This document shows positions 22,685 to 54,936 of a DNA stretch of 64,000 bases, piece by piece. Positions within the stretch are counted from its first letter, which is position 1, and each line of letters starts with the position of its first letter. The DNA comes from Verrucomicrobiota bacterium (lineage in GTDB: Bacteria > Verrucomicrobiota > Verrucomicrobiia > Limisphaerales > AAA164-E04): contig CP170459.1 in assembly GCA_047947115.1 (NCBI GenBank), positions 1,888,001-1,952,000 of the forward strand, in the 5' to 3' direction. Position numbers and translations under genes: made by a program. Under the pieces are notes generated by a model. That model was not told where the DNA came from. It saw nothing but the letters and a program-made list of their open reading frames with translations, and did no database searches.

Positions 22685-25600
22685 ATGAAAATCAAGAAAG
22701 AGCACATTCAGAACATCTGCAAATTAACTCCGCTTCAGGAGGGGATGCTCTTTCATGCCCTCTTGGACCCGGATTCAACTGCATATATAGAATTGACCCG
22801 TTACCATCTATCGGGGAATTTGGACCTGGATGCGTTTCGCTCCTCATGGGAGCAGCTGGTCGCTCGTCATGAGGCCCTGAGGACGGTGTTTTTGCACAAA
22901 AACACCCCAGAGCCGGTTCAGGTCATCCTCAAGCATCGTCCAATCGAGTTCTCATATGAAGACCTGTCTGTGTTGGATCCCGAGATTCAGGACGAAGCCT
23001 TAAACTCGCGCATGATTCAGGAAGGATCGCATAGGTTCGATCTCAGCCAAGGCCCATTGATGCGTCTCTTCGTGTGTGGGCTGTCTTCAGAGTCGCATGA
23101 GGTGTTCTGGACATATCACCACATCATTCTTGATGGTTGGAGTCTTGGGGTGTTACAGAAGGAATTCTGGGAGATATATCATGCGCTTGCAAACGGAGGG
23201 GGAGCGCATTTGAGGAAACCGGCGCCTTTTTCAAACTACGTCAAATGGTTGCGCTCCCAGTCAGTGGAATCAGCCGAGACCTATTGGAAGCATCGCTTCG
23301 CGCATCCATTGCCGCCTCCGTCATTCCAGCGGTTCGTCAAAAGGTACCCCAAAAAACCATTTTCACGTGACTCCTTTGAAGTTTTTTTCTCTAAGGAAAT
23401 ATCCGAGGGTGTTCGGTCCTTTGCCAGAAGGAATAGAATTTCCTTGAATGCGGCCTTACACGCTGGTTGGTCTATTACCCTCAATGCTGTTTTGGGAATT
23501 GAGGATGTGGTCTTCGGAGAGACCGTGTCCGGACGACACCCGGAGATCGCTGGTGTGAACGGGATGGTCGGATTGCTGATCAATGCCGTGCCTGTCCGTG
23601 TGACATTACGCCGCCAGGAATCATTGAGAGACCTCGCGCTACGGGTGCATGGGGATGCTGTGGAAGCCGAACCTTACCAATTTGCAGCCCTTCCACTCAT
23701 TCAGTCGACGGTGGGAGCGAATGGCTCCCTCTTTGACCATATTTTGGTTTTTGAAAATTATCCGGAAGCCGAGGAAACAGAGCATGCCGACTCCAGGCGT
23801 CGTTTGGTCATCAACCGATTTGAGCACGTGGATCATACGAACTACGGATTAACGGTTCAGTTCATGCCTGCGGAACAATTGGGAATTCGATTCATCTTCG
23901 ACAATAATACTTACGAACCATCCTTGTTGCACCGTGTGGCTGAAACATTCCAAAAGGCGATTAATGGTTTTTGCCACCATGGCGATTTAACGGTGGAAAA
24001 ATGGTTGCTCGAACGTGGGGGGGCAAGCCTTGTAGTCGAAAACGAGTTTTCCGTGGTTTTGACCGCCACCTTTACCGCGGATTTCTTTACAACGGGACTT
24101 GCGGCGTTCGGTCGGCTGTTTGGCCTGCCTATCCGTGTCAAGATCGCCCCCTATCATCAGGTGTGTCAGGAGTTGCTCAATCCCGGAAGCCTTACGGCAT
24201 CCAACCAGGGCATCAACATCCTGCTGGTACGGTGGGAAGATTTTCTTCCCGAGACGGATGCCAAGGAGGCGGTCACCTCCACTTTGGAAAGGGCCTTTGA
24301 GGATGTTTGCCATGCTGTGTTGGCGAGACGGGGGGCTGGGAGGTATGCATGCGTGTTGCTGCCGGTTGATCCGGGATCCTCGGAATGCGTCCAAAGGATA
24401 CAGCGTCAGTGGCGTGAATTCCTTATCCGGGAGACCAATCTGGAAGTGATCGATGGAACTCGGTTGGAACAAAATTACGCCATTGATGGAGTATTTGATT
24501 CGCAGTCTTACCGAGTTGGGAGAATACCTTTTTCCGATCAATGGTTCGCTGCGGCCAGTGCGCTGTTGTTCCGTTCTCTGATGGCTTCGAAGAAGTCCGA
24601 GTTTAAAGTGATCGCCGTCGATTGCGATTATACCCTTTGGGACGGTGTATGTGGTGAATTGGGGCCGACGGAAGTCCGGATTGGACCTTCCCACAAGGCT
24701 CTTCAGAATTACCTTGTTGAAAAGGCAGCCGAAGGTTTTCTAATCGTGCTGGTTAGTAAGAATCGGGAATCAGATGTGTGGGGGGTATTCGAGAAACACC
24801 CAGACATGCAGTTAAAACTCTCCGACTTGGTAACGACTCGAATCAATTGGAACGCGAAGTCGGATAATTTATGTTCTATCTCCAAGGAATTGAATGTTGG
24901 CTTGGATAGTTTTGTTTTTATTGATGATTCACTCGTCGAATGTTTGGAAGTGCTCAATCATGTTCCGGAAGTGCTTGTTGTCAGGGCCCCGGACGCGGAT
25001 ATCGCTGATCCGGACCTCTATTTTTCCCACGTTTGGGCTTTTGATCGATTTCGCATCACCGAAGAAGATCGGCAACGGGGAGAGATGATGCGGGCAGAGC
25101 AAGCACGGAAGCAAGCATGCAGCGAGATGTTGGTTTCCACGGATGACAACAGGAGCGGGACGCAACTGGATCGATTCATCCGCTCCTTGGAGGTCGAAGC
25201 AGACCTGCGACCAATCGCCGAGCATCAATGGGCTCGAGCGGCTCAACTGACTTTGCGCACGAATCAGTTCAATTTGACAGCCCACAGAATGTCCGAACAT
25301 GAATTGCGGGCATGGGCCGAGAATGAACAGAGTTTTGCCTGGATCGTTCGAGTGCGGGATCGCTTCGGTGATTACGGCGTTACGGGGTTGATTTGCGGTC
25401 GCGTCGAAGGTTCCGATCTCATCTTAGATCAATTCCTGTTGAGTTGCCGCATCCTTGGTCGTGGCGTTGAGGAGGCTATCTTGAAAGGGTTGAGCCAACA
25501 CCTGGATAAGAGGATCATAGGCGCCTTACGAGTTTGCTTTCTTCGGACGGAAAGAAACCAACCCGCACTGGATTTCCTCGAACGCTCGGCTTGGAGCTTG

Positions 25601-28600
25601 GTAAGGGACATGGGACAAACGGCCGAGTATCGCATAGAATTAAAATCTATCAGTCAACTCAAGATCTCGTCCAAGATTATCGTTCATCAACACCCTGAAC
25701 CGGAACAAACAGTCGAACTCGACGTTCCAATGAAATCTCCGGGCATGGCCGTAGACGAGAAACCGAATACCCAGCGCATACAAGATTGGTCGAACTGGAT
25801 CAACTTACCGGAGAGCAAGGATCCCCGTAATCGAGCCTACAGTGAAATGCTTCGATTGACTCACGCATCGTCCCTTCTTGCGTTGATAAATCAAATTTCG
25901 AACACGGACAATCCGTCTGTTTCCGTGGGAGGAAAACTCCCTCGTTCAGGAAATCGGAAAAGTCGGCCGAGCTTCGCACCTGCAACAACAGGAACTGAAA
26001 AGATACTCTTGTCGGTCTGGGAGGATTTGCTCGGATTGAACCAGATTGGAATCGACGAGGATTTTTTTGACATTGGAGGACATAGCTTAAAGGCAACGAG
26101 AATGGTATCTCGGATTCACAAGGTCTTTCAAAAGGAGATCAGTTTGAGTTCCGTGTTTGAAGAAAGGACCATCCGCCAATTAGCCCGCAAAATCGATGGA
26201 GGGCGGAACGATTGGGAAAAGATTCCGAAGCTTGCGAGCGGAGTTGAATTTGTTCTTTCACATTCCCAGCACAGGATGTGGGCCCTCCATCAGTTGGAGC
26301 AGAACTCTATAGCCTATAACAGTACGGGTTTTTACTGGATCAAAGGCGACGTTGATGTCGAACGGTTGCGAAATGCACTGGTCTCCGTTATCCAGGAACA
26401 TTGCGTCCTTCGTGCAGTTTTTCAAGATACCGAGCAAGGTCTTCGCATGATCGTTCGGGATTATGACGATTCTCAGGTTGTCATTATCACTGAAAGTGAA
26501 AGAGGCCGTCCCTTGTCGACACAGGACTTGGAACTTTATGCGAACGATATTACCCGGAAATCGTTCCGCTTGGATTGCGGTCCTCTTTTCTTGGTAAGAG
26601 TGTTGGTGATGGATTCTGGACGCATCCTGCTCGCCTTGCATATGCACCATATCGTCAGCGACGGAGGATCTCTCGATCTTTTTCAACGGGAAGTAATGAC
26701 GCGTTATTCCACAAGTCTCACGACTGATGAAAGCAGCGGTTTCGAAAGAACCAAAAAAGGAATTAGTTATCCCGATTATGCCGTTTGGCACAATCAATGG
26801 GTGGTGAGCGAATCCGGCCTTCGATCCCGTGATTATTGGATACGTCAGTTGACGAAGTTGCCACCACCGCTTCCTCTGCCGACGGATCGTACTCGACCAC
26901 CTGTCCAGTCCTTTCGGGGTGCGGCCGTGAAAATACGTTTGGCGGCACCCGAATGGGAACGTTTAGTCGAGCTTTCATTGAATGAAGGAGGTACTCGGTT
27001 TTCCGCGTTCGTGGCGATTGTTAAGATCCTGCTTCACCTGCACTCTCGGCAAGAGGACATTTTGATAGGCACTGTGGTAAGTGGGCGAGACCATCCCGAT
27101 TTGGAATCGGTCGTAGGTTTGATCGCTAACACGATCGCTTTGCGAGACATGTTGGATGAGGCATCCACCGTGAACGACGTGTTCAGTCAAGTAGCCAAAA
27201 CTTGTCGAGAAGCTTTTTCCCATCAGGGATATCCTTTTGATTTAGTGTTGGAATCCTTGAATTTGGAACGGGATCTCAGTCGTTCGGCGCTGTTTGATGT
27301 CATGGTCAATTACCATGGTGATGTTCCAAACTCCGAAGAGAATCCGATTGTCTTCGAAGAGTGGGAAATCGACTCACCTTTATCCCGCTTCGATTTGACG
27401 TTCAATGCCCTTGAATCCGAATCCGGGCTCATCGTCAAGCTCATCTACAACGTGGACATATTTGATCGGGAACGGATGGATCGGATCGGACAGCGTCTGT
27501 GCGCCTTGGCCTCCAATGCCAGTCAGGATCCTTCCGTGAAGCTCATGGAACTGAACATGCTTCCCAAACAGGAAATAGCATGGTTGCATAGCCGATTCTA
27601 TCCAGAACGCGTTGATTACCCGACTCATCTAAATCTCACGGAGATATTGGATGAAGTGGCGACAGCCCATGGCTCGACCCTGGCATTGGCATCGAACGCA
27701 TTGAGACTTACCTATTCCGAGCTGGTGACGGCGACCGTCCATATCGCGGATGCCCTTGGAGAAACGCTTGGTGACTGCCGTCGACAGATCGTAGCCGTAT
27801 CCATGACATCGCGTCCTCTTTCGGTGGTGGCAATGTTGAGTGTGATGAGGGCGGGCGGATGTTATTTGCCTGTTGATCCTTCCTATCCCAAGGAGAGAAT
27901 CGATTACCTTTTGAATGATTCTGGAGCTTGCGTGTTGATCACCGATACGGAGCGACATGAGATAGGAGACTTGGCTGGAGAACTCAAAGTGATGACGGTG
28001 GATCTTTCCTTCCTTGCCGAAATCACCGCCGGTGGGGCTTCAACTCCCCTATCGAGACGGTCTTATGCGGAGGGCTCTGATCCGGCCTATGTCATCTATA
28101 CATCGGGCTCGACCGGACGGCCCAAAGGAGTCAGCGTGACGCATCAAGCCTTTGTCAACATGATCACCCAACAGATAAAGACCTTTGATGTGCGGCCAAA
28201 TGATCGCGTTGTAATGTTCGCTTCATTGTCTTTCGATGCATCTTTGTCGGAGATTTTTATGGCGCTATTGAGCGGCGCAACACTTTACTGTCCGTCGCGG
28301 GAATGCATTCTGGACGGACGCCGACTGGTCGAATACATCCAAGACGAACAGATCACCATAGCCACCTTACCTCCACTGTATCTCAGGGCGCTGGGGCAAC
28401 CGGATCTAGGAACACTGAAAACACTGATTACAGCTGGTGAATCCGCGGTGCCCAAAGATGCGGCACATTATTCCAAGGATGGACGCCTGCAATATATCAA
28501 CGCTTACGGTCCCACAGAATGTTCCGTATGCACGAGTATGTTTCTTGTTCCTCGGGGATGGCGGGGAGAAAAGGTTCCCATTGGCAAACCTCTGGACAAC

Positions 28601-30787
28601 CTGGGAGTTTGTATCGTCGATCAGCAAGGCCGATTGGTGCCTGTCGGGCATCCGGGCGAAATTTTAATTCGCGGCGACGGATTGGCGGAAGGATACCTCG
28701 GCCAACCGGAATTGACGGTTCAACGATTTGAGACTCGGCCCCAAATACCTTGGATACATGGGAGACTGTATTCAACGGGAGATCTGGGGCAATGGACGGA
28801 AGAAGGCGATTTGCTCTACTTAGGTCGGATCGATGATCAACTGAAAATTCGGGGTCATCGGGTCGAGCCTGGGGAAATCGAACAAATTCTTTCTTCCCAT
28901 GAGAGTGTCACTGAAGGCTGTGTCATTGGGCATCAAATGGGCACCGGCTCCCAGGGGCTTGTAGCATTTTACGCAGGAACAACGACTCAAGCTGATTTGC
29001 GGGCTTACCTCAGAGAACGTTTGCCCGGACACATGGTTCCAACACAAATCGTGCGCGTCGACAAGTTGCCTGTCACTCCAAATGGCAAGATCGATAAATC
29101 CGCATTAAGTATTCCCGAAGCTGAGTTCGCGGAAGCTCCCCGGACTCCCACCCAGAAAGAGCTTCTTTGGATTCGCATTTGGAAAAACGTGTTGGGTGTA
29201 GCCGAGGTTCGTTTGGACGATTCATTCTTCGAGCTTGGAGGGGACTCCATAAAGGCAATTTTAGCCGTCAATCAAATGCTCCGTCAGGGATATCAGGTGG
29301 AAGTGCGCGATCTTGTGTTGCACCCAACTATACATGAATTGGCTCCTATGCTTCGGACAAATGTAAAGAGAGACCATGCTGCCAACCATGCTCGAAGCGT
29401 ATCGAGTGAAGTCGTGCCTCTGACGCCGATCCAGCACTGGTTTTTCAGGGCATTCGGAGACGAACGGGATCATTTTAATCACTCGGAAATGCTCCATTCT
29501 GTCGAGCCATTCGATAAGATTTTACTTGAGCAGGCTATCCAGTCACTGTGGAAGGAACACGATCAGCTGCGCGCTCGATTTCGAATGAAGGCAGAGACTA
29601 ACAAGGATCGGACAGTCTGGGAGCAATATATCCCTGAGGCCAGAGAAGAAAATATTTTACGTGAATTTGACTTAACGAAAGAGGACCAGCCTGATTCCCG
29701 TTTGCTACAATTCGCCAATCAACTGCAATCAAGTTTCCGCCTATCTGAGGGACCTTTGATGGCCGTGGGATTGTTTCGGTGTAAGGACGGGGATCGATTG
29801 CTTTTCGTGATTCATCATTTGGTCGTCGATGGGGTATCCTGGAGGTTGTTGCTGGAGGATTTTCAAGAAGCTTATCAATCCTTGAAAGCTGGTTTCGGTT
29901 GGGAACCGAAAGCGAGGAGCGCGTCCTATTCGGAATGGGCGCATGCTTTGGTTAAACTCTCTTCCCGAGAGAATCTTGCGAGGCAGCGTAGCTATTGGAA
30001 GAAGGTATTAAGTTTTCGCGGACCGGATCTCCCTTTGCGTGGGGTTTCCCTTGGAAGACTTCGATCCGAACAAACCTTTCGTTCCATTGAACTAAGTGCG
30101 GAGGAAACCAAGCATTTGTTGAATCATGCCGACTCGGGGAGTCAAGTGGTGGATTTCATTCTCGTGGGGCTGGGCTTGGCACTACACAGCTGGTCCGGCA
30201 TGAAACAATGCCTCATTGCCTATGAAACCCATGGGCGGCATTGGATAGAAGGGATGCCCCGGATAGATGTTTCCCGCACTGTAGGTTGGTTTACAAATGT
30301 GTTTCCGATGATACTTGATATCCGGCCCGAACAATCGTTGCAGAGCAATGTCAGACGCATCGCTGAGGCTAGGGAGTCTGTTCCCGGACATGGAATGGGA
30401 TTTGGCATCCTGGCCTATTTGGCAGGCGATGCGAATACTGCCGATGCGGGGCAACAGCCAAGAATTAGCTTCAATTACCTTGGGCAATATGAAAAACCAG
30501 CTGAAGCGACTTTTGAGGTTGGATTGGATGCGGACGGTGAATCCGTCAGTTCCAAAGCTCGACTGAATTATGATTTGGAGTGGAATGCGATCTTGCTGGA
30601 TGGCCGATTGAAAATCGTGGTGGCGTATGCTGAGGGGGCTTTGAGCGAGCCTGATGTAGAGTTATTGCTCAGATGTTTGTGGGAATCCATGGTGAGTGGA
30701 GCGGAAGTTGATGAAATCGAAGGTTCAAGTTCGGCGCTCGAACATATAGGGTCAAATTATGAGGAAAACACGACAACCAGGAGGTAA
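22685..30787 (+). CDS. NRPS with embedded FkbH domain: C-FkbH-T-C-A(Tyr)-T-E
   Basis: C HHIILDGWS; HAD motif DCDYTLW at 24620, VFIDD, RTNQFN, DRFGDYG, LLSCR; T GGHSL; C HHIVSDG; A code DASTIAAVCK (Tyr); T GGDSI; E HHLVVDG/ETHGR/RTVGWFT; no TE domain. Confidence 0.93.
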   Translation: MKIKKEHIQNICKLTPLQEGMLFHALLDPDSTAYIELTRYHLSGNLDLDAFRSSWEQLVARHEALRTVFLHKNTPEPVQVILKHRPIEFSYEDLSVLDPEIQDEALNSRMIQEGSHRFDLSQGPLMRLFVCGLSSESHEVFWTYHHIILDGWSLGVLQKEFWEIYHALANGGGAHLRKPAPFSNYVKWLRSQSVESAETYWKHRFAHPLPPPSFQRFVKRYPKKPFSRDSFEVFFSKEISEGVRSFARRNRISLNAALHAGWSITLNAVLGIEDVVFGETVSGRHPEIAGVNGMVGLLINAVPVRVTLRRQESLRDLALRVHGDAVEAEPYQFAALPLIQSTVGANGSLFDHILVFENYPEAEETEHADSRRRLVINRFEHVDHTNYGLTVQFMPAEQLGIRFIFDNNTYEPSLLHRVAETFQKAINGFCHHGDLTVEKWLLERGGASLVVENEFSVVLTATFTADFFTTGLAAFGRLFGLPIRVKIAPYHQVCQELLNPGSLTASNQGINILLVRWEDFLPETDAKEAVTSTLERAFEDVCHAVLARRGAGRYACVLLPVDPGSSECVQRIQRQWREFLIRETNLEVIDGTRLEQNYAIDGVFDSQSYRVGRIPFSDQWFAAASALLFRSLMASKKSEFKVIAVDCDYTLWDGVCGELGPTEVRIGPSHKALQNYLVEKAAEGFLIVLVSKNRESDVWGVFEKHPDMQLKLSDLVTTRINWNAKSDNLCSISKELNVGLDSFVFIDDSLVECLEVLNHVPEVLVVRAPDADIADPDLYFSHVWAFDRFRITEEDRQRGEMMRAEQARKQACSEMLVSTDDNRSGTQLDRFIRSLEVEADLRPIAEHQWARAAQLTLRTNQFNLTAHRMSEHELRAWAENEQSFAWIVRVRDRFGDYGVTGLICGRVEGSDLILDQFLLSCRILGRGVEEAILKGLSQHLDKRIIGALRVCFLRTERNQPALDFLERSAWSLVRDMGQTAEYRIELKSISQLKISSKIIVHQHPEPEQTVELDVPMKSPGMAVDEKPNTQRIQDWSNWINLPESKDPRNRAYSEMLRLTHASSLLALINQISNTDNPSVSVGGKLPRSGNRKSRPSFAPATTGTEKILLSVWEDLLGLNQIGIDEDFFDIGGHSLKATRMVSRIHKVFQKEISLSSVFEERTIRQLARKIDGGRNDWEKIPKLASGVEFVLSHSQHRMWALHQLEQNSIAYNSTGFYWIKGDVDVERLRNALVSVIQEHCVLRAVFQDTEQGLRMIVRDYDDSQVVIITESERGRPLSTQDLELYANDITRKSFRLDCGPLFLVRVLVMDSGRILLALHMHHIVSDGGSLDLFQREVMTRYSTSLTTDESSGFERTKKGISYPDYAVWHNQWVVSESGLRSRDYWIRQLTKLPPPLPLPTDRTRPPVQSFRGAAVKIRLAAPEWERLVELSLNEGGTRFSAFVAIVKILLHLHSRQEDILIGTVVSGRDHPDLESVVGLIANTIALRDMLDEASTVNDVFSQVAKTCREAFSHQGYPFDLVLESLNLERDLSRSALFDVMVNYHGDVPNSEENPIVFEEWEIDSPLSRFDLTFNALESESGLIVKLIYNVDIFDRERMDRIGQRLCALASNASQDPSVKLMELNMLPKQEIAWLHSRFYPERVDYPTHLNLTEILDEVATAHGSTLALASNALRLTYSELVTATVHIADALGETLGDCRRQIVAVSMTSRPLSVVAMLSVMRAGGCYLPVDPSYPKERIDYLLNDSGACVLITDTERHEIGDLAGELKVMTVDLSFLAEITAGGASTPLSRRSYAEGSDPAYVIYTSGSTGRPKGVSVTHQAFVNMITQQIKTFDVRPNDRVVMFASLSFDASLSEIFMALLSGATLYCPSRECILDGRRLVEYIQDEQITIATLPPLYLRALGQPDLGTLKTLITAGESAVPKDAAHYSKDGRLQYINAYGPTECSVCTSMFLVPRGWRGEKVPIGKPLDNLGVCIVDQQGRLVPVGHPGEILIRGDGLAEGYLGQPELTVQRFETRPQIPWIHGRLYSTGDLGQWTEEGDLLYLGRIDDQLKIRGHRVEPGEIEQILSSHESVTEGCVIGHQMGTGSQGLVAFYAGTTTQADLRAYLRERLPGHMVPTQIVRVDKLPVTPNGKIDKSALSIPEAEFAEAPRTPTQKELLWIRIWKNVLGVAEVRLDDSFFELGGDSIKAILAVNQMLRQGYQVEVRDLVLHPTIHELAPMLRTNVKRDHAANHARSVSSEVVPLTPIQHWFFRAFGDERDHFNHSEMLHSVEPFDKILLEQAIQSLWKEHDQLRARFRMKAETNKDRTVWEQYIPEAREENILREFDLTKEDQPDSRLLQFANQLQSSFRLSEGPLMAVGLFRCKDGDRLLFVIHHLVVDGVSWRLLLEDFQEAYQSLKAGFGWEPKARSASYSEWAHALVKLSSRENLARQRSYWKKVLSFRGPDLPLRGVSLGRLRSEQTFRSIELSAEETKHLLNHADSGSQVVDFILVGLGLALHSWSGMKQCLIAYETHGRHWIEGMPRIDVSRTVGWFTNVFPMILDIRPEQSLQSNVRRIAEARESVPGHGMGFGILAYLAGDANTADAGQQPRISFNYLGQYEKPAEATFEVGLDADGESVSSKARLNYDLEWNAILLDGRLKIVVAYAEGALSEPDVELLLRCLWESMVSGAEVDEIEGSSSALEHIGSNYEENTTTRR

Positions 30788-30927
30788 CTTAATAGCATTG
30801 ATAAATAATGAAATTCTAATTATTATTTCGCAATCTATTAAGAAGTTCGGTGGTCTGAGGTCGCTAGAGAATTTTTTGTAGGCGTGTTAAGACAGCTAGA
30901 AACTCAATATTAAAAAAGGAAAATATA

Positions 30928-32547
30928 GTGAAAACATTAATCACCATCTTGTTATTAATGGCGGCTTCATGTGTGATGACCTCCATGGTCGAGGCTCAGG
31001 ATTTGAGTGTCCAAAGGGCAATTCAGGTCGAATTCCCAACGGAAGCCGGTAAGAAGTATCAACTGCAATTTGGGGGAACGGTCAATGGACCTTGGTTTGA
31101 TTGGGGGGGGGCATTTGAAGGGACGGGCGGAGTGGCGCAGCGCGTTTCGGTGACCGTTGGGCAAGAAGCGGGCTTTTTTCGGCTTCAAGTGTCAGGCGAG
31201 GTCGTTCTTACACAATTTAAAAAGGATGCTATCAACGCCCGACTGGCTCAGGCAATTGACGATTTCGGTATCCCTGGCATTGCTGCAGGGATCTGGGTTG
31301 GGGAAGAGGAACCGTGGTTGACCGCGCGAGGGCTTGCTAATCTGGAAACAAAGGAACCACTTACCCCGGATCATCGCTTTCGAATCGGAAGCGCTTCCAA
31401 GACATTTGTTGCGATGGCGGCGATGCAACTGATCCACGAAGGCAAGGTAAGGTTCGACGATGTGATTACTCGCTATCTGAATCAGGAGGAGATGGATGCG
31501 CTAAGCGCCTACAATCTGGACGCGATCACGGTTCGCATGCTGTTGCGGCACACAAGTGGTTTTGCCAACTACACTTCGGATGTGCCAACTTGGTTTTTGC
31601 CCTATATTACTGATCGCACCCGGGTATGGAATAATTTGGAATTACTCAAGATAGCGAATGCGCCTGCAGGGCCCGATGGCACGCCGGAAACGGTTCCATT
31701 ATTTACACCGGGCATCGCATGGAGTTATTCAAATACCAACTACGTGTTGCTTGCCATTGTTGTCGAGCGCGTCACGGGTGAGTTCATTGGCACTCAGTTG
31801 GCCAAGCGCTTTTTTGAACCGCTCGGATTGATGCAAACTCGTTACCCGATTCCCGGTGAGTCGGAGATCCAAGGTGACAAAGTTTCCCGTGGTTATATGA
31901 ATTGGCGCAATATGCTCAATGGCGAGACTTCCGTACCTGCCGGGCTTATTGATGTGACTCAGTACGATCCATCCGGAGTTGGACCGGCTGGCCCATTGAC
32001 CTCTACCGTGGGTGATCTCTTGACTTGGATTCGAAATATCGCTCACGGAGCCGAGTTGATCGGTGATTTAAGTTTGCCGCAGATCAATTGGCATTATTTC
32101 CGCGCTGTCGGAGTGACCCCCAACACATGGCAAGCCCTCGATTTCTCGTATGGCATGGGCTTGGCGCATGAGGATGATAATGAGAATGACGCAAATTATT
32201 ATTTGATTGGGCATCGGGGACAAATCAGTGGTTTTGACACGGCCATGCAGTATTTGCCAGATCAAGATACCGGAATTGTGGTGTTCTGTAATCGAACACT
32301 ATCAAACGGTCCCGGAGACGGGCCTTTCAATCCATTTCCAACGGAGGGCTGGCCCAGCAACGCCAATGAAGTGGCAGTCTATTATATTATCAATCAATTG
32401 TATCCCGAGTTGATCGCATCTTCAAAAATTAGTGATCCCGGATCATTTTCAGGGGCTTCCGTACGTTCCTTGATTCAGAGTTCGCGAAGCAAGGATGCCG
32501 CACAGCCTGGTTTTAGGGTGCGTCCACCCTTGACCGAGTATCCTTGA
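30928..32547 (+). CDS. Exported serine hydrolase, beta-lactamase/S12 D-peptidase family
   Basis: Signal peptide ending VEA-QD; SxxK (FRIGSASK), LLRHTSG, YxN (YSNTNY), GHRG; extra ~60-aa N-terminal beta domain. Confidence 0.9.
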   Translation: MKTLITILLLMAASCVMTSMVEAQDLSVQRAIQVEFPTEAGKKYQLQFGGTVNGPWFDWGGAFEGTGGVAQRVSVTVGQEAGFFRLQVSGEVVLTQFKKDAINARLAQAIDDFGIPGIAAGIWVGEEEPWLTARGLANLETKEPLTPDHRFRIGSASKTFVAMAAMQLIHEGKVRFDDVITRYLNQEEMDALSAYNLDAITVRMLLRHTSGFANYTSDVPTWFLPYITDRTRVWNNLELLKIANAPAGPDGTPETVPLFTPGIAWSYSNTNYVLLAIVVERVTGEFIGTQLAKRFFEPLGLMQTRYPIPGESEIQGDKVSRGYMNWRNMLNGETSVPAGLIDVTQYDPSGVGPAGPLTSTVGDLLTWIRNIAHGAELIGDLSLPQINWHYFRAVGVTPNTWQALDFSYGMGLAHEDDNENDANYYLIGHRGQISGFDTAMQYLPDQDTGIVVFCNRTLSNGPGDGPFNPFPTEGWPSNANEVAVYYIINQLYPELIASSKISDPGSFSGASVRSLIQSSRSKDAAQPGFRVRPPLTEYP

Positions 32548-32633: not shown

Positions 32634-34118
32634 GTGTCGATGGCGCATCATTACCCTATTGATCGGCGGTTTTTGCCGATAATTCATTCAACAAATAAGG
32701 AAACAGTGGTCGTGGAGGAACTCATCACTCAAGACGCCGGTGTAAAGGAAGCGATAATCGTCAATTCGATTGCTTACATCGTTTTGCGAAAACATGTATT
32801 GGAAGAAACGGTTCGTGACCGGCTTTTGCGGATTCCTAAGATCCGAAATGCAGTCGCCCGGGTTGTGTGTTTGCCGCGCCTACCGTTGGATGCCCGTGGG
32901 AACATAGACCATGAAAACTTGGTAAGACGACCGGTATGGGACGATGCCTTGCTCGAAAGATTGGCAAACGAGGTTGAAACGTGGCCCGGGATGCGGCGTG
33001 CGGCCTGCCTTCGATCCCCCAAGCGACCGGGTAACATTCCCTTGGCGTGGCTCCTTCAATCCGAAGCTGCTCCGCAGGGGGAACAGGAACCTTCGTCCGC
33101 TCAAAATTCGCTCAGTCCCTTGCCCAATTCCTTGGTGCGACCGGCCGATGTGCCTTCAGGGAAGCTCCCGTTGGCATTGGTTGAAACGGAGGAACCACAC
33201 GAATACCGGAAAAAGCCCGGAGATCTTGTTGGCTCGTTGGAAGCATCCGTTCTTCGTTATCCCGATAAAGAGCTGGTTTTCCGGTTAGGGAAAGGTGATG
33301 AGAAACGGTTGAATTTCAAGGAACTTCGGGAGCGAACTAATCGTCTGGCGACCTCCGTCCGGAAATTGGGAAATCGACCTCCGCGTTTCGCTGTCATAAT
33401 CAGTCAGAGTAACTTAGAACTGGTGCTTGGCTTTTGGGCCTGTGTTCAAGCAGGGATCGTTCCGGTCATTGTTCCCGTCCCTGTTAGTTTTGATGGTGCC
33501 AACCGCCAAACCGTCCAACTGCGTCGAGCTCTGGAACTCCTGGAAGATCCGATCTTGCTGGCCGATCAAGCTACCAAGGATTTGCTCCTACCTTATGCAC
33601 AAGATTTGGGGGTGCGTAAGGATCACCTTGCGTCGATCATCGAGCTGGAACGCGACGGGAATCCGATGATTCCAGAGGTCGCCGACCCGGAGACCGTTGC
33701 CTTGTATGTGCTTACCTCAGGGAGCACGGGAACTCCCAAACTGGTTGGATTGACTCATTGGAACCTTCTCTCTCGAGCCCGGGGAGCGAATCAGCTAGCC
33801 GGCTTCACGTCCAGTGACCGTATCTTGAATTGGCTTCCATTCGATCATATCGGAACCATTTCAGATTGGCATATCCGGTGTATTGATCTTGGTTGTGAAA
33901 TGGTTTATGTCGATAAAGAGGCTGTCATCGCTGAGCCGGCTCGCTGGTTATCTTACCTATCAACATATCAGGCTACCCATAGTTGGGCTCCTAATTTTGC
34001 CTTCACCGCTGCAGTGAAAGGGGGGGGAGCGTGGCCCAAAGCGAACGGGATTCCTGGGATCTTTCATGCGTCCGAGGCCTTCTCACTGCAGGGGAAATGG
34101 TTTCTTCCAACACGATGA
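32634..34118 (+). CDS. Starter PKS-NRPS part 1: pseudo-Asub plus N-terminal half of a keto/hydroxy-acid-type adenylation domain (frameshift at G8, 34020-34027)
   Basis: LTSGSTGTPK, LNWLPFDHIG, WAPNFAF; homology continues in another frame right after the G run. Confidence 0.85.
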   Translation: MSMAHHYPIDRRFLPIIHSTNKETVVVEELITQDAGVKEAIIVNSIAYIVLRKHVLEETVRDRLLRIPKIRNAVARVVCLPRLPLDARGNIDHENLVRRPVWDDALLERLANEVETWPGMRRAACLRSPKRPGNIPLAWLLQSEAAPQGEQEPSSAQNSLSPLPNSLVRPADVPSGKLPLALVETEEPHEYRKKPGDLVGSLEASVLRYPDKELVFRLGKGDEKRLNFKELRERTNRLATSVRKLGNRPPRFAVIISQSNLELVLGFWACVQAGIVPVIVPVPVSFDGANRQTVQLRRALELLEDPILLADQATKDLLLPYAQDLGVRKDHLASIIELERDGNPMIPEVADPETVALYVLTSGSTGTPKLVGLTHWNLLSRARGANQLAGFTSSDRILNWLPFDHIGTISDWHIRCIDLGCEMVYVDKEAVIAEPARWLSYLSTYQATHSWAPNFAFTAAVKGGGAWPKANGIPGIFHASEAFSLQGKWFLPTR

Positions 34119-37100
34119 ATGATTTCGTCGAAGCACTTTCACCGTACGGACTCAAACCTGATGTGTTTATACCTGCATTTGGTATGGCGGAGATGGGATC
34201 AGGAACTACCTATTCGGTTTCCAAAGCCGGTGAACACGCACGGATTCGCCGGGTTTCCGAAGAGAGCCTAAGACTTGGATTTTGCCGTGATGTGAACGAG
34301 GAGGAAACGGCAGTGGAACTTTCCAGTCTAGGAAAACCAATTCCCGGGATCAGTATCCGGATTTGTGATGCCGATGGAAAGCTTGTGGAGGAGGGAAGAG
34401 TCGGGCGTTTTCAAGTCAAGGGGAACGCCGTGTTTGAAGGATATTACAAGGACGAAGAGGCGACACGTTCCGCTTTCACGCCAGATGGTTGGTTTGATAC
34501 GGGAGACCAAGGATTCGTTCATGCCGGAGAGCTTTACTTAACGGGACGATCCAAGGAATCGATCGTCATCAACGGTGCCAACTACTATCCGGCGGAAATC
34601 GAAGCGGTCGTTGAAAGTCTTCCAGGTATTTCCCCCGCCTTTTGTGCGGCCTTCTCGATTCCCGCAGAAAAGGGGGGGCGTGAGCAACTGATCGTAATCT
34701 TTCATACCTCTCTACCTGACAGGCTCAAGAAGCGGGTCGTGTCCGAAATTCGTCGCAAGGTCGTCCAAGCAATTGGAATAAGTCCTGACCTCGTTATCCC
34801 TGTAGAACGGGATGAAATTGAAAAAACGGCTATTGGCAAACTTCAGCGCAGTCTCATGGCTAGGAAATTCCTTGAAGGAGGTTTCTCCGATGCAATGATA
34901 CGTGTGGATACCATCCTGGGTGATGAGGATGCGCTTGTGCCGGACGCTTTTTTCGAACGGCAATGGGTGCCAAACGTAAGATCCGGTTTTTCTCCCCCGA
35001 CTCGGTCTCTTCAGGGAACATGGCTTTTAATTGAAAGCTTGCCTGCCTCTCCTGAGGGGGTAGCCATTGTCTCGGAATTGGCTTCGGAAGACCTTACGAT
35101 CATCCGGTTTTCGATGGGCGTATCGGGAGATATCAGTTCAAATCTCAAACCAGAAGCTGTTTGTCGGTTGGAATTACAGGGGGCACTCGACGATTTGGGT
35201 GCGAGAGGACTTTCGGGTATCTTCATACTGATGCCGGCAATACCGAATTCCAAGAACATTCGGAAGTCGGAGCTTACAAATGCGTTGGGAGTGAATGATT
35301 GGGACAAGCTGAGATCATTGAATCACCTGTGGCAAGTGCTGTCCGAGGATCTTCCACTCGATTTCCACCTCCCGGTGCGCTTCCTTCTGTCAAATATTAA
35401 TTCCGTTGCTTCGCAGTCTGATCAGGTTTTGGGATTGGGTTTTTGGGGCGAAATGCTCAAGGTGTGGAACTCGACTTATCCTTGGTTTGAAGGGCGAGTT
35501 GTAGGATCGATCAAAGTGTTTGAAAAGGAGCGTATTTGGAAACCCTTGTTGGATGAACTTCAGCGATCTGCGGTTTCGTCTGAAGACCCTGTCCGAATTG
35601 ACCAAGACGGTTCCTGGAGATTGATTGAGAGGAAAGTGGACCTTTCCGAGAAAACGAGTGGAAAGAAGCTGAAAGCGCCTGGGAATTTGCTTGTCATCTC
35701 CGGAAATGAAGACGTGACGATGGAAGTCTGTCTGCAGGCCATAGAACGTTCGCATTCTCGTGTGCGCCTCTTTCTTGTGGGGAAGGAACGAAGTCGGTTT
35801 CGGGAGATTCAAAAGTCGGTTTCAGAGCATCTTTCCGGGAAACTGGCTCGTGGAGTTGAACTCAAATCACTTTTTTCGATCATCCATACGGACCAGGAGG
35901 ATGTAAACAACATAGTGTCGGAATTTTTGGTGCCCGAGTTGTCTGAAGCTGATGGAATCGTCGTTGTGGGAGAATTCATCGATGCGTCACAGAGTGAGAT
36001 CCATTCAATGACGAACGAAGAGCTCAAGCAAATTCCAATTTGGGAACGAATCCTGCAAAGCATCGTTCACGCATGGACCCCAAAAAAAGAAGGATCCTTT
36101 CTGGCGATAACACGTCGCGCATTCAACGGGGGAGTGGGTGCAGACGCTTTCCTTACCGGATTGTGCCTTGAGACTGGGAGAAAGCTCAAACAGTCCGGCC
36201 GAAGAAATGTTTCGGTTTGCATGGCTCAAATTCGTAACGACTATGGCCAATCCGATAAGGCTCGAAGCGACTGGATGAGTTTGGCGCTTTCACCGGCGCA
36301 ACTGGTGGAAGTTGCGAATGCGGGGTTGAAAGCCGGACTTTTCGAGTGGTCCCTTGGGGGATACGTTCCCGATAGCGAACCCGAGACCGTTTCGGTATAT
36401 TTCTGCGCAGATGAGATCGTTCCCGAATCTTTCTGGGAGGAACGAATACTCAGAGACCATTTAGGAACTCCACTCCCGTGCCAATTCGTTCAACTCCGTG
36501 ACACACGTCGCCTGGCCCACATGCATGGCATGGAGTGGTGGCCATCCGTGGCTGATTACTTTGTATACGACGAATTGATTTATCATGCCCTGACACACGA
36601 CGAAAGGAGGAATGCCAGTTACAAACTGGCAATACGTAATTTGGTCAAGGGAAAAACGGTCGTTGATGTCGGCACTGGGAAAGAGGCCATTTTAGCCCGG
36701 TTTTGTGTGGAAGCAGGCGCCGCGAAAGTGTATGCTCTCGAAATAGGAGACGAGGCATATAAGGCTGCTTCCGAGCTGTTGAAATCGCTTGACTTGACTG
36801 ACCGTATTCACCTTATCAAGGGCGATGCTCGTCGTCTGGAACTACCGGAATTGTGTGATGTTTGTATTTCGGAGATAGTAGGTCCAATAGGGGGATGTGA
36901 AGGAGCTTCGTTGATCCTGAATGACTGCCGTCGCTTTTTGAAACCTGATGGAATCATGATTCCTTGCCGCAGCGAAACCAGGGTTGCCGCGGTAACTTGT
37001 CCCGATGCTCTGTTGGAACATCTGGGATTCCACGAAGTGCCCGGATCCTATGTGAAAAAAATTTACGATGACATCGGTCATGCGATGGATTTACGCGTAT

Positions 37101-37657
37101 GCATCAAACAATTCCCCCATTCACATTTTATTTCGGATTCCGCCATTTATGAGGACCTGGACTTTTCACAGCAGACCGAACCGGATCAAAAGCATCGCAT
37201 TCGACTTCTCGTCCACCGTTCCGGTCGTCTCGACGGGTTCCTGGTTTGGCTGAACCTCCATACGATGGAAGGTGAAGTGATAAACATCATCGAGCATGAG
37301 TACAGTTGGCTGCCCGTTTATTTTCCCGTCTTTTCCCCGGGTGTGATGGTGTCCAAAGGGGATTGGATCGAGGCTGAATGTGAGCGATGTGTTTCCTCCA
37401 ACGGGGTCAATCCGGATTATTTTCTGCGGGGGTACTGCACCGGACCAACGATGAGGATCTTCCATTCGAGCACGAGTCCTATCATCACGATGGCGGTTTC
37501 AAAGCGACACCGTTTTATCAGCGCATGTTTGGCGAGAATCCATTTGGCTGCCTGGCTCAGGATACAAACGAATTCTACGGCCGCTACTTGGATGATATGG
37601 TGTTCGATGTCACCGGACATCCGGATACCGCAGTACTGGCAACGCTCGGAGAGCTGA
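34031..37657 (+). CDS. Starter PKS-NRPS part 2: rest of A domain, degenerate KR, SAM methyltransferase (frameshift at G5, 37428-37432)
   Basis: TAGE, PAFGMAE, GWFDTGD, KTAIGKLQR; KR-like region lacking GGxGxxG; SAM-binding VVDVGTG, AGAAKVYALE. Confidence 0.85.
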   Translation: MAQSERDSWDLSCVRGLLTAGEMVSSNTMNDFVEALSPYGLKPDVFIPAFGMAEMGSGTTYSVSKAGEHARIRRVSEESLRLGFCRDVNEEETAVELSSLGKPIPGISIRICDADGKLVEEGRVGRFQVKGNAVFEGYYKDEEATRSAFTPDGWFDTGDQGFVHAGELYLTGRSKESIVINGANYYPAEIEAVVESLPGISPAFCAAFSIPAEKGGREQLIVIFHTSLPDRLKKRVVSEIRRKVVQAIGISPDLVIPVERDEIEKTAIGKLQRSLMARKFLEGGFSDAMIRVDTILGDEDALVPDAFFERQWVPNVRSGFSPPTRSLQGTWLLIESLPASPEGVAIVSELASEDLTIIRFSMGVSGDISSNLKPEAVCRLELQGALDDLGARGLSGIFILMPAIPNSKNIRKSELTNALGVNDWDKLRSLNHLWQVLSEDLPLDFHLPVRFLLSNINSVASQSDQVLGLGFWGEMLKVWNSTYPWFEGRVVGSIKVFEKERIWKPLLDELQRSAVSSEDPVRIDQDGSWRLIERKVDLSEKTSGKKLKAPGNLLVISGNEDVTMEVCLQAIERSHSRVRLFLVGKERSRFREIQKSVSEHLSGKLARGVELKSLFSIIHTDQEDVNNIVSEFLVPELSEADGIVVVGEFIDASQSEIHSMTNEELKQIPIWERILQSIVHAWTPKKEGSFLAITRRAFNGGVGADAFLTGLCLETGRKLKQSGRRNVSVCMAQIRNDYGQSDKARSDWMSLALSPAQLVEVANAGLKAGLFEWSLGGYVPDSEPETVSVYFCADEIVPESFWEERILRDHLGTPLPCQFVQLRDTRRLAHMHGMEWWPSVADYFVYDELIYHALTHDERRNASYKLAIRNLVKGKTVVDVGTGKEAILARFCVEAGAAKVYALEIGDEAYKAASELLKSLDLTDRIHLIKGDARRLELPELCDVCISEIVGPIGGCEGASLILNDCRRFLKPDGIMIPCRSETRVAAVTCPDALLEHLGFHEVPGSYVKKIYDDIGHAMDLRVCIKQFPHSHFISDSAIYEDLDFSQQTEPDQKHRIRLLVHRSGRLDGFLVWLNLHTMEGEVINIIEHEYSWLPVYFPVFSPGVMVSKGDWIEAECERCVSSNGVNPDYFLRGYCTGPTMRIFHSSTSPIITMAVSKRHRFISACLARIHLAAWLRIQTNSTAATWMIWCSMSPDIRIPQYWQRSES

Positions 37658-43629: not shown

Positions 43630-43807
43630 TAGGCTTGATCGCGTTGCGTTGCATGCCGTCTGGTTCGTGGTGTTCTGCGGACACAACGTTACTCATAAAA
43701 GAACCGATGCTTTGAGATTGCGGTGATACTTAGGATTGTTTACAAAAGGAGTCAGAAAATGGCCCTGTTGCCGTTGCTTTTATGGCCAACGGGATACGAT
43801 ACCAATA

Positions 43808-45873: not shown

Positions 45874-46330
45874 ATTTCGAATGTTGTGTTGTTTGACGTT
45901 ATAAATATTATTGCGGATCAGACGATATTTTCTCATCACTGCAAAGCAGCCTTTAAATCACCATCCACGTTAAGACGATAAAATATATCCAATTCTTATG
46001 CAAGATGAAAATCCCGCAATTCCAAATCACCCATTATACTCAATCACAGAAGGATGCAAAAACTTGTCCAAGGAAATGAGGGATCATCTTAAGGAACTTT
46101 TTTTAACCTCAATAAGCCGTCCGAAAGTTTGCCTTTTTCCTTAGCCCAATTTCTGTCGCCCGTTCGGAACGATTTTGGACTTAGGGCTTATTACATCGGG
46201 AGGTATCATATTGCACTAATACGCAATAACCGCCTCGCTTCGTGCTTGCCTGTTTAGAAATGTTCGAACACACTGGCCTCGCAGTGTTTGTTGAAACAGA
46301 AGGAGGTGCGCTTTGCTATCCAAACATGTC

Positions 46331-47401: not shown

Positions 47402-47414
47402 CAAGCCAACAAGT

Positions 47415-48284: not shown

Positions 48285-48298
48285 CCAAAACAATTTCC

Positions 48299-49635: not shown

Positions 49636-50382
49636 ATGAACCTCGCCCATCCGGCAAGTACACAGACGCAATATCAACGGATCGAACTAAGCTATGGCGA
49701 GGATCGTTATGTCGCCCACCTCGTCAGCTTGGCTAAACCTGCATATGATTCCCTGAAGTCTGAACAGGCTCAGTGGCTCCACCCTGAAGAATTGGCCTAT
49801 GTGAAGCAACTGGGTGTTAGTGAAATTCGCAAACGGAGCTACCTGTTGGGTAGGGTGGCAGCCAAGTCCGCTCTCAACCAATACCTAGGCCTCGAAAAAC
49901 TCACAGACTTTCGCATACTACCGGGTATTCTGATGGATCCCATTGTCTATCACCCAATGGCGGTGCCTTGGCAGGTATCCATCACGCATTCCAATACGAT
50001 GGCCTGTTCAGTGGCATTTCCATCCAAACTTCCCATGGCAATCGATCTGGAAGATCATTGTCCGAAGAATGCCAAGGCGATTCAAAGCAAATGCACGCAC
50101 GGAGAGATGGTCATGATACGCGAACTCGGCTTTTCGGCTGAGCAGGCTTGGACAGTCCTTTGGACCGCAAAGGAAGCCCTTTCAAAGGCCATTCGAACCG
50201 GTTTGACCTGTCCGTTTCACCTATTCGAAGTGAAGGCCGTGAGGCGGTTCTCCGAGGAGATCATTACGGGAGAATTTCAATATTTCGATCAATACCAATT
50301 CCGCACATGGCTCGTCGGACGGCACTTTTTATCTCTCATCTTTCCGGTGGGGACTCAGTTGGACTTGAAAACTATTCAATAA
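49636..50382 (+). CDS. Sfp-type 4'-phosphopantetheinyl transferase
   Basis: LHPEE, SYLLGR.AAK, VSITHS, AIDLE, WTAKEALSK. Confidence 0.9.
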   Translation: MNLAHPASTQTQYQRIELSYGEDRYVAHLVSLAKPAYDSLKSEQAQWLHPEELAYVKQLGVSEIRKRSYLLGRVAAKSALNQYLGLEKLTDFRILPGILMDPIVYHPMAVPWQVSITHSNTMACSVAFPSKLPMAIDLEDHCPKNAKAIQSKCTHGEMVMIRELGFSAEQAWTVLWTAKEALSKAIRTGLTCPFHLFEVKAVRRFSEEIITGEFQYFDQYQFRTWLVGRHFLSLIFPVGTQLDLKTIQ

Positions 50383-54923: not shown

Positions 54924-54936
54924 GTTTTTCTTTGGT

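Follow-up and report, generated by a model that had tools for sequence, protein, structure and literature searches.

A conserved export-type S12 hydrolase beside an NRPS line that ends in an epimerization domain: possible removal of a C-terminal ester cap

Main finding

The nonribosomal peptide synthetase (NRPS) line described here ends in an epimerization (E) domain with no thioesterase (TE), and is followed by a gene for an S12 serine hydrolase that is present in all 14 of the examined genomes that carry such a cluster. The window analysed is a 64,000-nucleotide stretch of a host genome assembled as a single contig of 6.08 Mb (95.8% complete). We tentatively propose that a standalone type II TE would release the chain, an ABC exporter would carry it out and the hydrolase would then cut the ester between D-Ile and glycerate; taken whole, this pathway is slightly more apt to fail than to hold, and its parts are graded below. 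Positions refer to the window, and features lie on the plus strand unless the minus strand is given.

Architecture of the assembly line

Domain searches and A-domain codes gave the order of the line. PKS-NRPS1 (5382..14879; KS-AT-ACP-aminotransferase-C-A-T-E, A code DMALVAEVWK) is predicted to supply a β-amino acyl unit plus D-Xaa, NRPS2 (14872..22653) reads C-A-T-C-A-T-E with codes that we take to specify Thr and Ile, and the terminal NRPS3 (22685..30787; 2700 aa) reads C-FkbH-T-C-A-T-E, with a TIGR01686 FkbH domain and a Tyr code (DASTIAAVCK). The module-1 codes were DMALVAEVWK / DALL[TC]AEVVK. An alternative module order was ruled out by other clusters, where the modules are fused in a fixed order. 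The predicted product, with residue identities deduced from the codes, is β-amino-acyl-D-Xaa-L-Thr-D-Ile-O-glyceryl-D-Tyr.

The terminal E domain (29408..30694) has intact motifs, with HHLVVDG at 29813, ETHGR at 30224, TVGWF at 30278 and FNYLG at 30470, and only about 30 residues follow it in NRPS3; these contain neither a TE nor a reductase nor an additional C domain. NRPS1 and NRPS2 also terminate in E, with acidic docking-type tails; NRPS3 has no such tail. A sequence-only reading of this locus had described a line stopping at T-E with no TE, reductase or terminal C domain, next to a gene with SxxK, YxN and HxG motifs, and the present analysis agrees. Its suggestion that a final module might lie outside the window is unsupported because all eight C/E domains of the one-contig genome are inside the window, and the homologous lines read to their stop codons, 14 of 14, end alike in E with no TE. 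No NRPS was found outside the window in the whole 6.08-Mb genome, a genome-wide search for reductase-type release domains returned nine weak matches in short frames distant from the cluster, and the TE-terminated partner NRPS that the earlier reading had thought worth seeking was not found in this genome, an outcome in that reading's favour. An orphan NRPS or TE elsewhere was ruled out by these genome-wide searches.

The remaining genes flank the line on both sides. A standalone type II TE with a GYSLG motif (1841..2629, minus strand; PF00975, E = 7e-46) is the only TE in the genome and the candidate release enzyme. Beside it lie a discrete ACP for a hydroxymalonyl-type extender (2639..2869, minus strand), matching at 44% the G327 ACP found between ACAD and HCDH, a DUF481 protein, likely of the outer membrane and also seen in related clusters (3140..4291; PF04338), and a DUF697 protein (4591..5313) occurring in one to three copies in 12 of the 14 clusters, to which a protein atlas look-up added nothing. 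Downstream of the hydrolase, the loader PKS (32634..43629; FAAL-(KR-like)-MT-ACP-KS-AT-DH-KR-ACP) is one gene that appears here in three frames. In the related genome G018 it is a single 3633-aa ORF, and all four DNA runs carry one extra G near 34019 and near 37427; the split is the result of assembly errors at these two sites. A pseudogene cluster was ruled out, both breaks being assembly errors. Then follow a SyrD-type cyclic-peptide ABC exporter (43736..45466; TIGR01194 above cutoff), a hydroxymalonyl-ACP-type cassette recognized by domain profiles as FkbH, 3-hydroxyacyl dehydrogenase and acyl-CoA dehydrogenase (46313..49474), a phosphopantetheinyl transferase (49636..50382; PF01648), a solute-binding-protein-like gene shared with related clusters (50546..52105; PF13416) and an SPFH/band 7 protein kept in the clusters (52082..53185, minus strand; PF01145). 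RNA-library contigs from four runs in three studies, with no silent control, overlap the hydrolase and NRPS genes in part.

The hydrolase and its probable export

The next gene after NRPS3 (30928..32547, GTG start) encodes a 539-aa S12 serine hydrolase of the ADP/R61 type, as judged by fold and PF00144 (E = 6.6e-54). A signal peptide is heuristically predicted at residues 1-23 (30928..30996; MKTLITILLLMAA...VEA|Q), followed by a small β-domain (31003..31200) that has matches in 12 other proteins of the genome, some at weak E-values, and is C-terminal in 11 of these likely secreted proteins. By motif reading, the catalytic region (31390..32220) holds S155xxK158 (S155-A-S-K at 31390), Y267xN269 (Y267-S-N at 31726) and H429RG431 (H429-R-G at 32212), with the Ser/Tyr/His/Lys tetrad of ADP/R61-type S12 hydrolases, and S155, K158, Y267, N269, H429, R430 and G431 are invariant in 62/62 subfamily members. 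A C-terminal PLxEY motif (32527..32541) is conserved in 55 of the 62 members and occurs in one of 5039 genome ORFs of at least 200 aa.

The subfamily forms a separate clade (support 100) with an HRGQ motif III and the PLxEY tail; compared with ADP/R61, its members have extra segments inserted near the active site. The nearest solved folds were ADP, DHy1, DAH and R61 (TM by target 0.83-0.87), with SurE at rank 50, and by profile ADP scored E = 1.5e-58 against 1.5e-21 for ClbP and 1.5e-16 for SurE. Those four nearest enzymes are D-specific at the acyl side; by analogy, the hydrolase may cleave with D-specificity at P1. A generic housekeeping role was ruled out, the six paralogs in the genome being about 25-31% identical at best. 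Among 60 relatives the only ortholog is in G018, beside the same cluster.

The hydrolase is very probably exported. An N-terminal hydrophobic stretch is found in 56 of the 62 members by a hydrophobicity heuristic with no background control, and two of the other six are N-terminal fragments, in agreement with the signal peptide noted in the sequence-only reading. Several unrelated accessory N-domains have been swapped into the subfamily, some wider-clade members are predicted lipoproteins, and a lipoprotein is also predicted for a distant member directly behind a terminal-E gene. No conserved internal Met was found in the subfamily, any Met occurring in only 16 of 62 members. At the other end, the model has no lipocalin domain and finishes in a low-confidence tail of about 40 residues with no β-barrel, and no C-terminal membrane anchor is seen (over the last 110 residues, no 19-residue stretch exceeds a hydropathy of 0.63).

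Conservation and co-occurrence

The 14 clusters come from 13 Verrucomicrobiota and one member of another phylum; G704, which is fragmented with its terminus out of view, G410 and G145 lie outside this count. All 14 genomes have the hydrolase, an outcome in favour of the earlier reading, which had allowed that it might prove not to be conserved. In 11 of them its gene is at most about 20 kb away, on one contig or on two that overlap; in five it is directly downstream of the NRPS. A standalone type II TE was seen in 13 of the clusters. Among 301 genomes of one family the hydrolase occurs in eight, and because all eight carry an FkbH-bearing NRPS the pairing is not due to chance. A glycerate-Tyr-E end was present in none of the nine genomes read out of ten FkbH-positive, hydrolase-negative ones, a reading that excludes G487 and a second G629 match. 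Two collection scans were dominated by generic S12 genes and held at least five subfamily loci among the 160 kept. None of 1174 matching plasmid records covered the FkbH-to-A stretch at 80% coverage.

The cluster from the other phylum, G928, has a different core and a module 1 with no E, and it retains D-aa3-glycerate-Tyr-E, the hydrolase, the type II TE, the ABC exporter, band 7 and DUF697. Therefore, the D-aa-glycerate ester would be the sole common D-acyl bond within reach of an exported enzyme. Across 10 clusters, hydrolase identity tracked the ABC exporter (rho 0.97) and band 7 (0.93) and the last carrier only at 0.49, and type II TE identity tracked the terminal E (0.91) and the last carrier (0.88), values that come from 45 non-independent pairs and are driven by a few deep splits.

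Wider-clade hydrolase P0551 and P0196, a glycerate-Tyr NRPS with a type I TE, apparently come from one source, a circumstantial pairing that suggests that the hydrolase persists even where a line can already release its product. For P0141 and P0554, both genes are in one genome, on different contigs with distant locus tags, a point against the proposed pathway. The 15 plasmid matches to P0551 listed out of 231 were Bacillus and actinomycete serine hydrolases (36-43%).

Release from the line

A standalone type II TE probably frees the chain from the last carrier, judging from gene context and trees; the sequence-only reading had overlooked this gene and called release unexplained. Among the 120 matches listed, 28 NRPSs terminate in glycerate-Tyr, of which 13 end in E, six in E plus TE, seven in a type I TE with no E and two in E-C. 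Lines with a cis TE include those of Hyalangium versicolor (P0146) and Noviherbaspirillum (P0207). In a quick tree, the TEs fused after E in the six relatives group with type II TEs (SH-aLRT 93); therefore, a type II fold can unload a glycerate-Tyr terminus. The window TE is 27-32% identical to these fused TEs and of the same class (support 93), not orthologous, and in the quick tree it nests among generic type II TEs and is not sister to the standalone TEs of other clusters. In G625 and G647 the type II TE gene immediately follows the terminal-E gene.

Type II TEs are common editing enzymes, and we consider it rather unlikely, although a serious candidate, that this one only edits and that the chain leaves by intramolecular attack (from the Thr or glycerate hydroxyl or the β-amine), through the terminal E, or by an unrecognized protein such as DUF697. 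This alternative concerns the release step alone and would fit whatever the hydrolase does. The generic character of the window TE agrees with it, as do the two relatives ending in E-C, the presence in 12 of 14 clusters of a DUF697 protein to which no role has been assigned, and the terminal E itself, which is less conserved than any other part compared (mean identity 0.36) and reads HHxxxDW in 10 of 12 clusters. However, all E catalytic motifs are kept, and a type II-like TE sits fused at the exact position or adjacent in the relatives above.

Proposed pathway and known systems

In the favoured pathway, the line, which lacks a fused TE, would build β-amino-acyl-D-Xaa-L-Thr-D-Ile-O-glyceryl-D-Tyr, and the type II TE would hydrolyse this capped chain off the last carrier. 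The SyrD-type exporter would then move the capped product out, and the S12 hydrolase would cleave the D-Ile-glycerate ester, which would take off the glyceryl-D-Tyr cap and leave a linear lipotripeptide acid as the mature product, related to its precursor as cystomanamide A is to B. The D-Ile-glycerate ester seems the bond most plausibly cut, an assignment that we hold to be somewhat better than even; hydrolysis is likely rather than transfer, and the cap would probably be a pro-piece, making this a prodrug step at an unusual end of the chain, the carboxy end.

The cystomanamide synthetase of Cystobacter fuscus offers a comparison. In a review (PMC9581180), its modules are given as (C-A-T-E)(..C-A-T)(C-A-T-E)(C-FkbH-T)(C-A-T-E-TE) and its product is Asn-Asn-Phe-glycerate-Tyr, with glycerate-Tyr in congener B and not in congener A. 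On that description, both systems share a FAAL/PKS-aminotransferase start that yields a β-amino fatty acyl, a set of five modules of which 1, 3 and 5 have an E, a C-FkbH glycerate module and a terminal Tyr. Cystomanamide has a TE fused after the last E, whereas here a type II TE stands alone with no cis TE; its core is described as Asn/Asn/Phe, whereas the codes here point to Xaa-Thr-Ile; and an extra PKS module and the hydroxymalonyl-type cassette set the present cluster apart, as does its dedicated exported hydrolase, to the extent that the review's description of the cystomanamide cluster permits comparison. The cystomanamide B-to-A conversion could be non-enzymatic.

Vioprolide and corramycin also have a C-FkbH module that forms a glycerate ester. 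Ester hydrolysis as the maturation step has been reported for vioprolide; for corramycin, a periplasmic hydrolase has been proposed to carry it out. In both, the ester joins a fatty acid to glycerate at the N-terminus and the glycerate is kept in the product, whereas the ester here is internal and glycerate-Tyr would be discarded. The prodrug peptidases ClbP and ZmaM share with the present enzyme the presence of an exported S12 enzyme in the cluster and the cut after a D residue, which is inferred here. ClbP has a C-terminal transmembrane anchor and works with an N-acyl-D-Asn initiation module. By contrast, the hydrolase here lacks such an anchor, the module-1 code is not an Asn code, the module-1 E is absent in G928, and the putative pro-piece is C-terminal and ester-linked rather than N-acyl-D-Asn. 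ADP, DHy1, DAH, R61, BogQ/TriF and Lip3/Lip7 are of the same secreted D-stereospecific type, but identity to ADP/R61-type enzymes is only about 30%, and the hydrolase here is tied to one cluster type.

Alternative roles of the hydrolase

The same ester could serve acyl transfer, the β-amine attacking a D-Ile acyl-enzyme to give a 13-membered cyclic lipo-tetrapeptide outside the cytoplasm, and glyceryl-D-Tyr would then be a built-in activated leaving group, installed by the NRPS, for macrocyclization or ligation uncoupled from the line. ADP uses D-amino acid esters and can synthesize peptides from them (PMC4570186), and PBP-type TEs are reported to cyclize peptides that end in a D residue when these are offered as ethylene-glycol esters (PMC11735501). 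In the predicted substrate the amine is free and the residue at the ester is D, the exporter belongs to a cyclic-peptide family, and the subfamily has its insertions around the active site. However, cystomanamide A, the one characterized family member, is described as linear, the hydrolase has no lipocalin domain, the ring would be strained and water competes outside the cell; we regard both forms of this idea as improbable. Less improbable, though still unlikely, is self-resistance or turnover. In this reading, which follows the BogQ/TriF logic, the capped lipodepsipeptide is active and would be broken down in the producer envelope by the exported D-peptidase, with either the ester or the D-Xaa-L-Thr amide as the site of the cut. 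The S12 enzymes BogQ and Lip3/Lip7 cut after D residues of nonribosomal peptides and Lip3/Lip7 have signal peptides (PMC12903863); export and strict cluster linkage fit this role equally well, and lipoproteins are predicted in the wider clade. Against this, a cap that stays the same across phyla while the core varies has the look of a pro-piece, the accessory domains of secreted-protein type suggest action beyond the inner membrane, and the module-1 D configuration is not universal (G928).

By far the least probable is a SurE-type trans-acting offloader, a cytoplasmic form that would cyclize or hydrolyse the chain at D-Tyr from the last carrier. The SurE pattern is that of an NRPS with a terminal E and no TE beside a PBP-fold gene, in five of 14 clusters the hydrolase comes directly downstream, and the type II TE might only edit; SurE, PenA and Ulm16 likewise share the PBP fold, the SxxK/YxN/HxG motifs and a standalone position beside a TE-less, E-terminated NRPS. 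Such TEs act in trans on the carrier and hence in the cytoplasm, whereas the hydrolase N-terminus is of export type, with its widespread hydrophobic stretch and swapped N-domains. They carry at their C-terminus a domain resembling lipocalin (PMC11735501), which the hydrolase lacks, and it lies on a different fold branch; the SurE-type substrate starts with an L-amino acid and the one here with a β-amino acyl. The weak tracking of the last carrier and the likely retention of the hydrolase beside a cis-TE line also speak against it. The sequence-only proposal of a SurE-type cyclase made from an internal start is unsupported because the hydrolase lacks a lipocalin domain, SurE comes only 50th in the fold ranking, no internal Met is conserved and the distant member behind a terminal-E gene is a predicted lipoprotein. 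That reading's interpretation is thus supported in part: extracytoplasmic maturation at the D-Ile-glycerate ester emerges as the best-supported of the options offered, the outside module and the internal-start cyclase are unsupported, and the description of release as unexplained overlooks the type II TE.

Significance

For genome mining, the clusters are a warning that a SurE cyclase cannot be called from a terminal E, no TE and a PBP-like gene alone. An esterase or transferase with D-specificity would be of use in biocatalysis. If the hydrolase cyclizes, it would represent a new ring-closure route and a natural counterpart of the SurE diol-ester trick used in vitro, and leaving-group macrocyclization outside the cytoplasm would, in that improbable event, span several phyla. 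No description of the cluster family or of the hydrolase clade was found in the literature searched, which mostly excluded subscription papers. In Verrucomicrobiota the clusters form a conserved lipodepsipeptide family that is apparently undescribed and has relatives in other phyla, and they provide a testable reason for the glycerate-Tyr tail of cystomanamide B: it may serve as an ester cap that can be taken off the C-terminus, in mirror image to the N-acyl-D-Asn prodrug motifs.

Cluster organization and predicted product

The window carried a hybrid PKS/NRPS gene cluster comprising PKS-NRPS1 (5382-14879, KS-AT-ACP-aminotransferase-C-A-T-E), NRPS2 (14872-22653, C-A-T-C-A-T-E), NRPS3 (22685-30787, C-FkbH-T-C-A-T-E), an S12 (PF00144) serine hydrolase gene (30928-32547), and a FAAL-loaded PKS (32634-43629), as well as a SyrD-type exporter, an FkbH/dehydrogenase/ACP cassette, a PPTase, and SBP, band 7, DUF481, and DUF697 genes. 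NRPS3 stopped about 30 residues past an E domain with intact motifs, which bears out the sequence-only reading that the line ends in E. Its further claim that a thioesterase (TE) is lacking held for NRPS3, to which none is fused, but had not considered a standalone type II enzyme (TEII, 1841-2629), the sole TE of the genome. A final module beyond the window, also suggested there, was not supported by the source genome, a single 6.08-Mb contig (95.8% complete) with all eight of its C/E domains inside the window; this genome contained no TE-bearing partner NRPS elsewhere.

The A-domain codes were, in order, DMALVAEVWK, DFWNIGMVHK, DGFFLGVTFK, and DASTIAAVCK; the first is unassigned, and we take the last three to specify Thr, Ile, and Tyr. 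The line is predicted to assemble beta-amino-acyl-D-Xaa-L-Thr-D-Ile-O-glyceryl-D-Tyr, with alpha-hydroxylation possible via the hydroxymalonyl-type cassette.

The apparent break of the FAAL-loaded PKS into three ORFs was rejected as an assembly error. Single-G homopolymer errors at 34019 and 37427 split the gene, the extra G was present at both positions in all four DNA runs checked (marsh, estuary, aquatic, and unlabelled metagenomes), and the comparison genome G018 has a single 3633-aa ORF. The methyltransferase and KR-like insert of this PKS occurred only in the source genome (G000) and G018, and its AT was apparently truncated in G460, G461, G462, G553, G478, and G463. In G000 and G018 the PKS-NRPS1 AT carried HAIH, an unusual motif, which read HAFH in G327, G460, G461, and G462. 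At G223:C1:1280826-1289042, module 1 read C-T-E with the A-domain match absent, and is possibly loaded in trans. The region 54165-64000 (DeoR regulator, phosphate propanoyltransferase, acetate kinase, aldehyde dehydrogenase, class II aldolase, lactate/malate dehydrogenase) is similar to the microcompartment locus by which Planctomycetes and Verrucomicrobia use deoxy-sugars, and is unrelated to the NRPS/hydrolase finding.

Conservation of the hydrolase with the cluster

Lines were followed to their stop in 14 genomes (G000, G018, G223, G327, G460, G461, G462, G463, G478, G553, G571, G625, G647, and G928), and all terminated in C-FkbH-T-C-A-T-E, none with a TE. The terminal A code was DAST[IV]A[AG]VCK in 13 and DAAILAAVCK in G460, the module-3 code was Ile-type in 12, and a standalone TEII was found in 13 of the clusters. 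The association of hydrolase and line, on which the earlier reading depended, held in homologous clusters: all 14 genomes carried the hydrolase, linked within about 20 kb in 11, accompanied by further cluster genes on a separate contig in two, and at a contig end in one. G928, drawn from a 251-genome sample of a different phylum, has a different core without the module-1 E; its sole PF00144 gene directly follows the terminal E gene, on contigs joined by a 123-base overlap, and its product, predicted to be a lipoprotein, belongs to the wider clade enclosing the hydrolase subfamily.

Among 60 relatives, an ortholog occurred only in G018, adjoining a syntenic cluster, while a 401-genome phylum sample held the hydrolase in four genomes (G000 included), each with the cluster. 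Within the 301 genomes of the family of G168, a member of the same class as the source genome, eight had the hydrolase and 18 a strong FkbH match; all eight fell within the 18, and nine of the ten FkbH-positive, hydrolase-negative genomes were read, all with unrelated systems. None of the seven same-genus genomes searched (75-94% complete) yielded the hydrolase of the cluster, which, together with a DDE transposase (PF13701, 3-1376) at the left edge of the cluster, fits horizontal movement.

DUF697 (4591-5313), band 7 (52082-53185), SBP-like (50546-52105), and DUF481 (3140-4291) genes travel with these clusters and perhaps form an export or immunity module; DUF697 occurred in one to three copies in 12 of the 14, and DUF697 and band 7 were present even in G928. 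A separate conserved cluster in the family of G168 (loci L227-L232; G446, G523, G505, G544, G629) combined a standalone Ser-type A domain, KS-AT-KR-ACP, a DH-FkbH-T fusion, two dehydrogenases, and NRPS modules, with no S12 hydrolase of the subfamily.

Properties of the hydrolase

The subfamily comprised 62 sequences of about 39-73% identity, well separated from the next matches by identity and coverage, and its representatives formed one clade (support 100) within a wider, mostly GHRGQ-type clade (support 96, FastTree). The structure model (mean pLDDT 81.9) had a small N-terminal beta-domain, a PBP fold, and a disordered tail, with no lipocalin domain. The sequence also has no membrane tail. 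Fold and profile ranking placed DHy1, alkaline D-peptidase (ADP), R61 DD-peptidase, and DAH on top, with ClbP 17th and SurE 50th. DHy1 is reported to cleave after D residues (PMC13206553), and ADP is D-specific and forms peptides out of D-amino acid esters (PMC4570186). The signal-type N-terminus described earlier recurred, with export-type N-termini in 56 of the 62 members by a hydropathy heuristic run with no control; several unrelated types of N-terminal accessory domain were swapped in.

The N-domain (31003-31200, roughly 65 residues, beta, no Pfam match) had matches, some of them weak, in another 12 proteins of the genome, likely secreted and all with hydrophobic N-termini; it was C-terminal in 11 of these and may serve as a tag for secretion or surface display in Verrucomicrobiota. 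In 55 of the 62 members, a linker that is variable and of low complexity leads to a C-terminal PLxEY motif (32527-32541), and EY-type ends also occur in many wider-clade hydrolases. Since PLxEY is unique in the source genome, it is not a general sorting signal; the tail may fold back onto the active site.

Proposed release and maturation of the chain

Among the best 120 of 495 relatives of the NRPS3 FkbH region, 28 had a glycerate-Tyr terminus, ending in E (13), E-TE (6, one from Hyalangium versicolor), a type I TE without E (7), or E-C (2). The E-C ends (P0129, P0130) may represent a third means of release. A second family of NRPSs, about 4490 aa long (P0136, P0147, P0148, P0152, P0156, P0157, P0167, P0174, P0182, P0183, and, by size, G410:C112) read C-A-T-A-T-C-A-T-C-FkbH-T plus a TE by Pfam, with the glycerate module at the end. 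Hydrolase cluster P0420 and TE-less NRPS cluster P0133 had three members each, apparently from the same three sources, and hydrolase P0551 and TE-bearing P0196 apparently had one common source, both circumstantial; P0141 and P0554 lay in one genome on different contigs, and linkage there is unsupported.

The TEs fused after E shared 27-32% identity with the window TEII, type I TEs reaching at most 40 bits, and clustered with type II TEs (SH-aLRT 93). The TEII gene lies directly downstream of the terminal-E gene in both G625 and G647. Type II TEs are reported to be able to release final products (PMC10510592). The window TEII nests among generic TEIIs (nearest about 43-51% identity), and the fused TEs are not its orthologs, so the argument for TEII release applies at class level only. 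Across 45 non-independent pairs from 10 clusters, taken descriptively, TEII identity tracked that of the terminal E (rho 0.91) and of the last carrier (0.88), and hydrolase identity that of the ABC exporter (0.97) and of band 7 (0.93), with only 0.49 for the last carrier.

In the favoured reading, TEII would hydrolyse the chain, capped by glyceryl-D-Tyr, from the last carrier, the ABC exporter would move it out, and the hydrolase would then cleave the D-Ile-glycerate ester to give a linear lipotripeptide. The ester is favoured as the cut site because it is the only D-acyl bond common to all clusters and reachable after export. Exported maturation at this ester, as proposed earlier, is the most likely reading here, although for the whole path our confidence falls just short of even. 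The hydrolase itself is unlikely to be the offloader, since an exported enzyme is unable to reach the carrier-bound thioester. A cytoplasmic SurE-type role is highly improbable: a lipocalin domain defines PBP-type TEs (PMC11735501), the hydrolase lacks one, and SurE ranked only 50th. The cyclase from an internal start envisaged earlier is not supported either, as no internal Met is conserved in the subfamily and only 16 of 62 members have any.

Capture of the same acyl-enzyme by the beta-amine would give a macrocycle instead; PBP-type TEs do take diol esters in vitro (PMC11735501), but cystomanamide A is linear, and we consider this outcome quite improbable. Self-resistance of the BogQ/TriF type, for which PMC12903863 offers precedent, is unlikely.

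Relation to known systems

In the review PMC9581180, the cystomanamide line is (C-A-PCP-E)(C-C-A-PCP)(C-A-PCP-E)(C-FkbH-PCP)(C-A-PCP-E-TE), making Asn-Asn-Phe-glycerate-Tyr, and congeners B and A differ by Tyr plus glyceric acid. That line ends in E-TE, whereas the window line ends in E without a cis TE. Vioprolide has a known glycerate-ester precursor, and one has been proposed for corramycin (PMC8949500, PMC10099666), but with the ester at the N-terminus, unlike the internal D-Ile-glycerate ester predicted here. No account of the cluster family or hydrolase clade was found in the full-text literature, whose coverage mostly leaves out subscription papers and the original cystomanamide report. 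The hydrolase clade falls outside both the SurE and the ClbP families. Judged from sequence, a line of the cystomanamide type that lacks a cis TE, together with a dedicated clade of exported, predicted D-specific hydrolases, is a new combination of known kinds, and by analogy the hydrolase probably works like ClbP, but on the other end of its substrate molecule.
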